Part shown: positions 479 through 2,290 of the stretch, in pieces
How the letters are laid out: each line of letters begins with the position of its first letter
How positions within the stretch are numbered: position 1 is the first letter of the stretch
From: Candidatus Poribacteria bacterium
Lineage (GTDB): Bacteria; Poribacteria; WGA-4E; GCA-2687025
Assembly (NCBI GenBank): GCA_963665845.2
Contig: OY762492.1
Location: 3,808,001 to 3,872,000 of the forward strand
Length of the DNA stretch: 64,000 bases
Reading direction: 5' to 3'
Notes under the pieces: generated by a model
What the model saw: only the letters and a program-made list of their open reading frames with translations
Databases searched by the model: none
What the model was told of the DNA's origin: nothing
Position numbers and translations under genes: made by a program

Positions 479-787
479 GCCGTCCGCTCCTTTTCATTTT
501 CAGTACAGCCATGACCGCTGCCCTGTCAATGTTTAAGTTCAACGACGCTCTAAGAATTTCGCTGACATGAATGTCCAGCTTCGAGGCAGAAAAGAAGTAG
601 GGCGTATCATCCGTTCAGGCGAACGCGGACAGTTTCTGCGACGCCTCTATATTCCCGCTTACGCAGGAGTATCTGTGTTCAAAGTCAATCATTTTGCGCT
701 TTCCGTAGCGCCGAAAGTCGCCGCGGCGGATATTTTTCGGCAGTACCGAAGGAGCCGCCGCAGCGAAATTTCGGAAAGATGTTTTCA

Positions 788-1987
788 TCAGCCTTGCGTC
801 CTGTCGCTTGACTGCGGATCCGAAGACGCCGATGCCGGCGCTTCTCCAGGCGCCGGCAGCGCCTCCCCGACAGCCTCGTCAGAAGGCGCTGCGGCAGATG
901 TTTTGATCTGCGCCGCGACCGACGCATCAGAAGACCCCAACTCTTCCGATGGCGCCGCATCCGCTGTTTCATTCTGCTCATCGGAAGACGCCGACTCTTC
1001 CGATGAAATCAAAGAATGCAACTCATCCAAGGGAACCCAAGGTGTTCCACGCTTCAGAATCGCGTTCGCAAGAACCGCCAACTTCCGCATCACCGCCGTA
1101 AGCGCGACCTTCCCAGGCTTGCCGCGAGCCGTCAGACGCTCGTAAAACGCCTTCATGTCGGGGTTGAAACGAATCGCCGACATCGCCGACATATACAGAA
1201 GCGCCCGAACATCGCTCCGACCGCCCCAAATGCGGCGGCGACCTGTCGACTTCCCGCTCTCGCGCGCCTAAGGAGCCAAACCAAGCAGGGAACAGATCTG
1301 ACTCCCGCTGCGCCTGCCCAACTCCGGCACATGAAGAACCAGATACGCGGAAAGGAGAGCCCCGAAGCCCGGAATGCTCTTCAACAGACGAAACCTCTTG
1401 TAAAGATCAGGCTTTTCCTTGATCAACGCCAAAGCTTCCCGCTCCGCCGCCTTGCGCTCCTCTTTCAGAGTGTCGCGGAGCTGTTCGGTCGCAGCCTCCG
1501 TCGGCTCGCCTTTCAGTAAATGCAGCCGATTGATCAACTGCGCGGTCATTTTCACCAACTGCCTGCTCATTGCCATCCAGCAGCGGGCGTCTTTCACGAG
1601 CGGATCGATCGGCTTTGTCGATTCCAGATCGCGGCTCAGCCCATACAGCGCGAGCATCTTGGCGTCCAGCGCGTCGGTCTTGGCGCGGACGCGCTGGGAG
1701 CGGGCGAAGTGATGGGGGTAGTTTGGATGACAGCGGCGGTAAGGGATCTCTGCTTCGGCGAGCAGCGACGCCAGTTTCCGCTCGTATCCGCCGGTCGGTT
1801 CAAAGACGACCATGTTGATGTCGGGGTAGGTCATCAGGAGGCGTTTGATGAACCGCTTGATGGGGCTCGCGGCGTTTTTGATGGTGGAAGTTTCCCCGCC
1901 GTTGATGGAGATTTCAAGCGTGTTTTTGGACACGTCGATTCCGGCGACGATTTTGTTGTTGTTTTCGTCGTGGCGTGGTATGTTCAT
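788..1987 (-). pseudogene. IS110 transposase/recombinase with in-frame TAG at 1268-1270
   Basis: N-terminal motifs VAGIDVSK, FEPTGGYE, KTDALDA (DEDD). The same frame continues after the TAG as GLAP*ARESG...[22 protein letters not shown]...[26 protein letters not shown] before ATG 1987. Confidence 0.85.
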
Positions 1988-2009
1988 TTTCGTTCTCCTT
2001 TCGGGAGAA

Positions 2010-2203
2010 AAGGACAAGAAGGACCGGCCTCCTTACTTGTATTCTGTAACAAGAACACGGTATCTGTGCGGAGCCTCCGGTCTTTCTTGTCTTCTTTGCG
2101 CGGCTCTCGATACTCCCGCACGGCGCCGCTGCGAAGCAACGCGCCCAAGACGACTCGGAGTCTGACCGCGCTACCCCTTAAGTATGCGCTTACTCGAGGG
2201 GCA
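2010..2203 (-). ncRNA. Putative IS110 bridge RNA (5' hairpin, target-binding loop, donor-binding loop)
   Basis: Three stem-loops. ACAGATAC (2067-2060) and ATACAAGTA (2042-2034) match the end junction ACAGATACTTGTAT. GTCGTCTT (2154-2147) and GCGGGAG (2119-2113) approximately match the repeat target. Ends are approximate. Confidence 0.75.
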
Positions 2204-2290
2204 ATGTCATCATACAAATGACGAGGAGGGGCGCGGGAATGCATGTCCTCGTGAAAACGGGGAAGCGGGGACGCCTGACGATGCGGGCGA

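Follow-up and report, generated by a model that had tools for sequence, protein, structure and literature searches.

An IS110-family element of the IS621 group in a CGTC-1/NTS hairpin repeat of a poribacterial genome, with a predicted bridge RNA and unlike target and donor cores

The element, its copies and its recombinase gene

The window analysed here is a stretch of 64,000 nucleotides from a Candidatus Poribacteria genome (contig OY762492.1 of assembly GCA_963665845.2). Near its start it carries, on the minus strand, a 1549-bp IS110-family element with TGTAT...ACAGATACT ends (668..2216), the ends having been set by comparison of its copies; all features of the element given below lie on the same strand. 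We observed that the coordinates and sequences of a preliminary description of this locus all check on the minus strand and that, as claimed there, removal of 668-2216 restores CTCGTCATT joined to CCTGCGTAAGCGGGAAT. Upstream of the element (2291-6428, minus strand) is an ordinary ffh-rpsP-KH-trmD-rplS-rnhB-YraN run, in which the names come from ORF reading and YraN/UPF0102 was confirmed by a Pfam check. Downstream (2-478) we found a 159-residue coiled-coil-like ORF with no Pfam match.

The element contains a DEDD recombinase gene of 399 codons (788..1987), whose catalytic residues D18, E63, D105, D108 and S244 are invariant columns in the alignment with relatives. The product matches PF01548 (E 1.2e-16) and PF02371 (E 1.2e-18), which corresponds to the DEDD RuvC-like domain and the domain with the catalytic serine of IS621-like IS110 elements, and the nearest solved structures are those of IS621 and ISCro4 (PDB 8wt6, 9t56). 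The left end is 229 nt long versus about 120 nt for the right end, and no long subterminal inverted repeats are visible on inspection of the ends of the copies. We assign 668-2216 to the IS621 group of IS110 elements. RNAfold predicts a long hairpin (715..770) in the 123-nt right end. The protein terminates in an acidic low-complexity tail of about 80 residues (788..1030), which is absent from most relatives and common only to the closest homologs in the alignment. This tail is kept in frame: among nine copies, indels within it are multiples of three, and those past the stop are single bases.

There are ten copies in the genome, seven of them full-length (89-100% identity), two diverged and one shortened (copy H). 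The open reading frame is kept in copies B, C, F and G, copies D, E, I and J are frameshifted, and the window copy has an in-frame TAG (1268..1270) at codon 240, four codons ahead of the catalytic serine. Reading of this TAG as an amino acid is ruled out, codon 240 being TGG in six close siblings. It is also TGG in the listed contigs of the sequencing runs, so that the stop is either private to the window copy or an assembly error. The window copy cannot encode an active enzyme, and its mobility would need recombinase supplied by the four intact copies.

Several copies show a particular structure. Copy H (G000:C1:469929-470372) is a mini element of 444 bp with a complete bridge RNA. It ends at an internal donor-like site, GCGGAAACT (1773..1781 by copy comparison), which matches the true end at 6/9 positions and is joined to the right half of the repeat; to judge from its sequence, this looks like the use of a cryptic end. 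Copy I (G000:C1:1533503-1531952) is a hybrid, the first ~100 bases belonging to the main family and the remainder resembling the diverged copy J, and its right donor guide, ATATAAG, is intermediate between the main-family and copy J types. Identity varies block by block among the close copies, which suggests that copies may have recombined with one another. Copies C and G are 6.9 kb apart in opposite orientation, with their left ends facing each other (G000:C1:525988-535968).

Target repeat, donor ends and predicted bridge RNA

The preliminary description had proposed to look at the sites of other copies, and the outcome was in its favour: all ten copies are inserted at the same bond and in the same orientation of a CGTC-1/NTS (dRS3-type) hairpin repeat, where the left junction reads GTCATT and, at the right one, CT precedes CCYG. 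In the window, the element separates the left half of the target (2217..2225; positions 1-9, CTCGTCA plus the core TT), which is the CGTC-tagged end of the repeat, from the right part of the broken repeat, CCTGCGTAAGCGGGAAT (651..667; target positions 10-14 correspond to 667-663). A count of 20 or more repeats in the window had also been given; we found 19 intact ones, when 0 are expected (100 shuffles), and the one broken by the element, 20 in all. From the genome copies, the consensus is CGTC-ATTCCCGC-GYAA-GCGGGAAT-C, which has the CGTC-1/NTS layout: an unpaired CGTC tag, an 8-bp stem starting with AT, a 4-nt loop and a short tail led by C. Exact copies of the NTS consensus number 174 in the genome. 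The NTS layout was defined by Chenal 2025 (PMC11893778), and the CGTC-1 class, as presented by Di Nocera 2013 (PMC3733652), includes Neisseria dRS3.

The opposite arm of the hairpin, which also contains ATTCCCGC and is found equally often (1067 vs 1058 sites), received 0/10 insertions. Sites starting with ACC, as the commonest left guide does, make up 5/10 of the occupied sites versus 109/1058 (p 0.002). In a same-genus genome, G001, the body of the element is unassembled and the junctions at contig ends alone are readable, the guides not; we counted four left junctions that read GTCATT up to the break and four right junctions that read ACAGATACT.

Around copies B, C, D, F, G, H and I, the repeat is often found within a larger unit bounded by AAGTTGGGACAT and ATGTCCCAACTT. 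The sequence GTTGGGACA occurs 367 times in the genome, and the unit is possibly a MITE-like element. Elsewhere, a GIY-YIG gene (SsnA-like, 102 residues) is flanked by NTS-type repeats (L185:1492-1800). A RAYT transposase was considered as the mover of the repeat and rejected, PF01797 not being found in this 90%-complete genome.

The left donor arm, which is the right end of the element, is ACAGATA followed by the core CT (668..676) and is identical in 9/9 full-length copies. The right donor arm, at the left end of the element, is TGTAT (2212..2216), replaced in copy J by TACAT. As previously claimed, the joined ends read ACAGATA-CT-TGTAT, a 14-mer that occurs 0 times in the genome as assembled. 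The joining is predicted to create sigma-70-type promoter boxes across the circle junction (TTGACT-17-TATGAT), the -35 box TTGACT (683..688) being present as TTGAC in 30/31 right ends listed and the -10 box TATGAT (2209..2214) being conserved in relatives. No end-to-end joint was found in the Logan contigs of runs X1, X3, X4 and X9, and such contigs drop rare forms. One X9 contig has a loose end at position 669 of the window, the repeat being interrupted by only ~13 bases of a left end, which start with TATAT and end with CT; this sequence may be what a deletion at a cryptic end has left behind in a related strain.

Folding of the left end gives three stem-loops (-88 kcal/mol, z -4.05, 0/200 shuffles as stable), which bears out what had been noted for the non-coding end of the element. 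The fold and the alignment of relatives place the predicted bridge RNA's 5' stem-loop at 2173..2203, a predicted target-binding loop at 2098..2171, the left-guide side of which has one base fewer than that of the named relatives, and a predicted donor-binding loop at 2022..2082. In the target loop, the left target guide GTCGTCTT (2147..2154) matches its own site at 6/8 positions, with a constant mismatch at position 7. The right target guide GCGGGAG (2113..2119) reads CTCCCGC, its G facing T8 of the target (wobble) and, after exchange, C8 of the donor, and the handshake bases TA (2111..2112) are the complement of donor positions 6-7. In the donor loop, the left donor guide ACAGATAC (2060..2067) and the right donor guide ATACAAG (2036..2042) match the donor at 8/8 and 7/7 positions, respectively, and both guides (8-mer and 7-mer) are found together in the shuffled 229-nt left end with a frequency of only 7.5e-5. 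The segment ATACAAGTA (2042-2034) had been presented in its whole length as an exact match to the junction; its last two bases are the handshake bases TA (2034..2035) and do not belong to the right donor guide. Most relatives, like copies I and J, have TG there. With TA, the window copy has three handshake pairs before and three after exchange, when TG gives three and four; the favourable pattern described for IS621 (PMC11208158) is thus not followed by the window copy. Copies E, G, I and J have the left donor guide variants ACAGATGT and ACAGATGC, which are wobble-compatible (G-T or U-G) with the bottom strand.

As for the left target guide, the location proposed earlier stands. Its match to the repeat near 43733, on the other hand, is without special meaning, since the guide of the window copy is unlike that of 8/9 other copies (ACCGTCTT), copy J having AGAGTCAT. 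In 8/9 full-length copies the guide has a fixed mismatch at position 7 and matches its own site at 5-7 of 8 positions; that of the named relatives is a near-perfect 9-mer, e.g. TCCGTCATT. When target A7 is bulged out, the commonest guide fully matches the commonest flank (9/9). With such an imperfect left target guide, the right guide, the protein or the hairpin may contribute some of the specificity. We also observed that in the left ends of copies B-I the commonest guide region, CCAGACCGTC, is identical to the commonest repeat flank over 10 bases, 4 of them beyond the expected need of the guide; extended pairing, or a guide copied from its target, are two ideas that could account for it. In addition, the left guide of the window copy (2147-2154) fits the site of copy E (G000:C1:1264187) at 7/8 positions, better than the guide of copy E itself (5/8), hinting at a possible action in trans.

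A genome search with 150 scored candidates gave no stand-alone bridge RNA copies beyond the 10 elements; model R1 matched the 10 left ends and nothing else in the genome, and Rfam gave no match. In the RNA run X9, contigs over the left end have a depth of 13-16 versus 3-6 for the gene, although contigs give neither strand nor level and may be DNA.

A genome scan for relatives returned 80 loci with 33-40% protein identity, mostly from Dehalococcoidia, plus Latescibacterota and one Poribacteria record. Both ends could be parsed at 72/80 loci, L059 (left TC) and L092-L098 being dropped, and 80 metagenome loci (L099-L178) were left out as too distant or too short for both ends; model R1 gave 23 weak matches on 93 metagenome loci. 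The parsed relatives have a common donor, A[CG][AG]GATA-CT-TGTAT, and their TTGAC and TATG boxes come together at the junction. The alignment of 33 left ends yields, besides a 5' hairpin, two stems whose internal loops contain the guides; 22/36 consensus pairs show compensatory changes.

Covariation of guides and targets, announced as a test in the preliminary description, holds across these relatives. In the set of 26 distinct guide pairs, agreement with the sites is 157/208 positions for the left target guide (shuffle mean 96, max 127) and 117/130 for the right one (mean 49, max 82; 20,000 shuffles each), figures that give no clean probability because the guide sets come from kin and are not independent. 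Separate retargetings are visible in L025, L043, L056, L068, L088, L064 and L086, and relatives with other guides insert at non-repeat targets. Guides also covary with the donor: in copy J the left end TACAT goes with the right donor guide ATGTAAG, and in relative L023 the arm AGGGATA goes with the guide AGGGATAC. In the relative at L060:1341-1480, the bridge RNA lacks its right target guide and the first part of the donor loop, a short-repeat deletion having removed them; an intact sibling, L059, adjoins it.

Unlike cores, proposed mechanism and alternatives

An apparently mismatched core, with TT in the target and CT in the donor, had been noticed for the window copy, and empty repeats as well as the junctions of the clade substantiate it. 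Of 724 empty repeats, 722 have the core TT; GTCATTCCCGCG occurs 862 times in the genome and its CT version, GTCACTCCCGCG, 0 times. The 72 genome loci parsed at both ends and the nine own copies were merged into 78 distinct sites, at which left and right cores are TT/CT in 49 cases, CT/CT in 28, AT/CT in 1 and CT/TT in 0; L059, outside this set, reads TC on the left. The TT/CT sites come from this genome (9) and from 13 named genomes (40), and in 49/49 the left side reads CATT and the right side TACT; positions 6 and 8 are where donor and target differ. At position 7, A is found in 78/78 donors and 75/78 targets. An identical two-base core, CT in IS621, is therefore not what we observed here, T9 alone being shared.

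Position 8 of the guide corresponds to the first core base of the target in 24/26 guide pairs (14 T, 10 C), and the G that faces position 8 in both right guides is invariant; in IS621, this G is reported to be bound by the protein (PMC11208158). On this comparative evidence we consider that the left target guide is tuned to the TT core. With distant IS110s as the root of a FastTree protein tree, the basal state is TT/repeat targeting; the CT-site elements fall in a single derived branch (support 0.96), which also contains one TT element. The mismatch thus looks ancestral in the clade, position 8 having changed about twice, so that the shuffle test overstates this position. A histidine at the N84 position of IS621 was examined as the cause of TT use and discarded, His being found also in CT-core relatives and in one outgroup. 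In the literature on unlike cores we found no published natural TT/CT pair, preprint supplements being outside this scope and an earlier description being possible; one paper on core mismatch concerned, in the part consulted, bases beside the core (PMC13626964).

We consider it very probable that this IS621-group element moves as a circle and that an RNA made from the junction promoter steers the recombinase to a single bond of the repeat, with TT in the target against CT in the donor. The joined ends of the circle are predicted to make the promoter of a two-loop bridge RNA, which would likely steer the recombinase to one bond of the host CGTC-1/NTS repeat. By analogy with IS621, the partners of the left guides would be the bottom strands and those of the right guides the top strands. 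Cleavage of the top strands would take place after the shared T9, followed by their exchange; bottom strands would be cut between their positions 9 and 10, with positions 6-9 as heteroduplex (described for IS621 in PMC11208158). The U at position 8 of the left target guide would read the TT core, and the G kept in the right guides would form a wobble with T8 and a normal pair with C8. As the wobble lost in one loop is gained in the other, no net drive would come from the mismatch.

Read from the junction sequences, what survives at all 49 sites is the top-strand outcome. It would be obtained either if the top strands alone were joined or if the nicked bottom strand were repaired. Top-strand-dominated insertion was reported for CazIS110-1 (bioRxiv 10.1101/2025.10.25.684509), and repair directed by the unligated bottom strand is described in PMC13626964. 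The relative L055, with TACT on the left, AACT on the right and a poor fit to its own target guides, may represent a bottom-strand outcome.

A different reading, to which we give almost an even chance, is that this core is nothing special: IS110 elements would make no true duplication, CT would belong to the right end, T9 alone would be shared, and the mismatch, a product of the convention of a two-base core, would be common in IS621 as well and tolerated there. Indeed, Siddiquee 2024 (PMC11187229) argues that neither family is characterised by duplication and shows that ISEc21 inserts without one. If these elements make no duplication, an unlike first base is unsurprising, and an identical core as a defining IS110 trait is disputed (PMC11187229). 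Moreover, the second core T of IS621 hardly varies, conservation of the first base being weaker (PMC11208158), mismatches beside the core are an expected product of IS621-type systems (PMC11208158, PMC13626964), and the boundary search of Durrant (PMC11208160) is described as having retained concordant cores only. However, the published IS622 design rules demand identical cores (bioRxiv 10.1101/2025.05.14.653916), and CT:GT orthogonal cores removed the cross-reaction of IS621 guide sets (bioRxiv 2026.04.29.721476); from these reports, a mismatch is not free in IS621/IS622.

It is unlikely that the site is mainly set by the hairpin or cruciform together with the right guide, the left target guide being in decay, loosely paired or bulged. 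The fixed position-7 mismatch and the shortened loop in 8/9 full-length copies, the 9/9 fit of the commonest flank with A7 bulged and the help that ISPpu10 is reported to receive from a target stem-loop (bioRxiv 10.64898/2026.03.19.712850) would agree with it, but the other arm of the hairpin, which has the same right half, is never used, occupied sites are enriched for the first three bases of the guide, and relatives with other guides use targets that are not repeats. We give very little credit to the idea that CT was originally in the target and that the left TT arose later by mutation or by gene conversion with TT repeats. About 860 TT repeat copies are potential templates for such a conversion, but the genome has no empty CT repeats, TT-site elements have U, and CT-site elements C, at guide position 8, and the TT/CT pattern is present in 14 genomes.

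Steering by a bridge RNA to a TT target core with a CT donor core is thus the reading that we retain. A broader claim, which we put forward tentatively and with some doubt, is that a clade spanning several phyla has been programmed since its origin for unlike cores and for the same position-7 base, and that the 49 junctions record top-strand-only inheritance. If true, this clade breaks both matching rules behind IS621/IS622 editor design, which joins sites whose cores are identical and whose positions 6-7 differ (bioRxiv 10.1101/2025.05.14.653916). Natural TT-to-CT joining with A7 on both sides would widen the usable site pairs, and such a family offers intact orthologs ready for testing. That positions 6 and 8 are inherited from one side is relevant to the debate between two-strand Holliday resolution and top-strand-only insertion. 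The effect would be incremental, the mechanism class being already known, and what deserves bench work is the TT/CT pairing, encoded in the guides throughout the clade, together with the strand record of 49 to 0.

Comparison with known systems

The preliminary description had proposed a bridge-recombinase ortholog with its own target and donor specificity. The ortholog reading is supported by the conserved RNA, the covarying guides and the IS621-group protein. The element has in common with IS621 and ISCro4/IS622 the DEDD and serine domains and a long left end with a three-stem RNA, predicted here (PMC11208160, PMC11208158), as well as the same succession of four guides and two handshake positions, a predicted junction promoter and a REP-type target. 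It differs from them by a distant recombinase (E 6.5e-27 and 1.8e-28), by the TT target core against a CT donor and by a target loop that is one base short in the copies of this genome, and from IS621 by H in place of N84 and the 80-residue acidic tail. The IS622 design avoids the same base at position 7 (bioRxiv 10.1101/2025.05.14.653916), whereas A is present in both partners here.

A donor specificity of its own was overstated. The IS621 donor, ACAGTAT-CT-TGTAT (bioRxiv 2026.08.31.748434), is identical to that of the element at 11/14 bases, and the same left donor arms are present in the supplementary list of Durrant. In supplementary file 5 of that study (PMC11208160) there are 24 matches to GTCATTCC, 239 to ACGGATACT and 9 to ACAGATACT; for 10 GTCATTCC among the matches listed, the target frame begins one base earlier and puts AT at the core.

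ISPpu9, ISPpu10, ISPa11 and ISRm19 are likewise reported at one bond of a host palindromic repeat (PMC1525189; bioRxiv 10.64898/2026.03.19.712850), but they use other repeat families, and ISPpu9 and ISPpu10 are described with a two-base direct repeat and ISRm19 with CT at both ends (PMC1525189). The Neisseria phage Nf1 (PMC7058167) integrates in dRS3 and is described as using a CT motif. ISEc21 (PMC11187229), compared here by description, likewise inserts without duplication. The top-strand-dominated joining of CazIS110-1 (bioRxiv 10.1101/2025.10.25.684509), also compared by description, predicts the junction asymmetry found here. The descriptions of ISEc21 and CazIS110-1 in these sources present no guide tuned to unlike cores. 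Two further papers touch on the subject (bioRxiv 2026.08.14.744561, PMC13604230).

Novelty is limited by the IS621-like donor, by the known targeting of REP sequences by IS110 elements and by the presence of this repeat family among published targets. In conclusion, the element very probably works like IS621, and the identical two-base core is the one testable feature of the family in which it departs from it.
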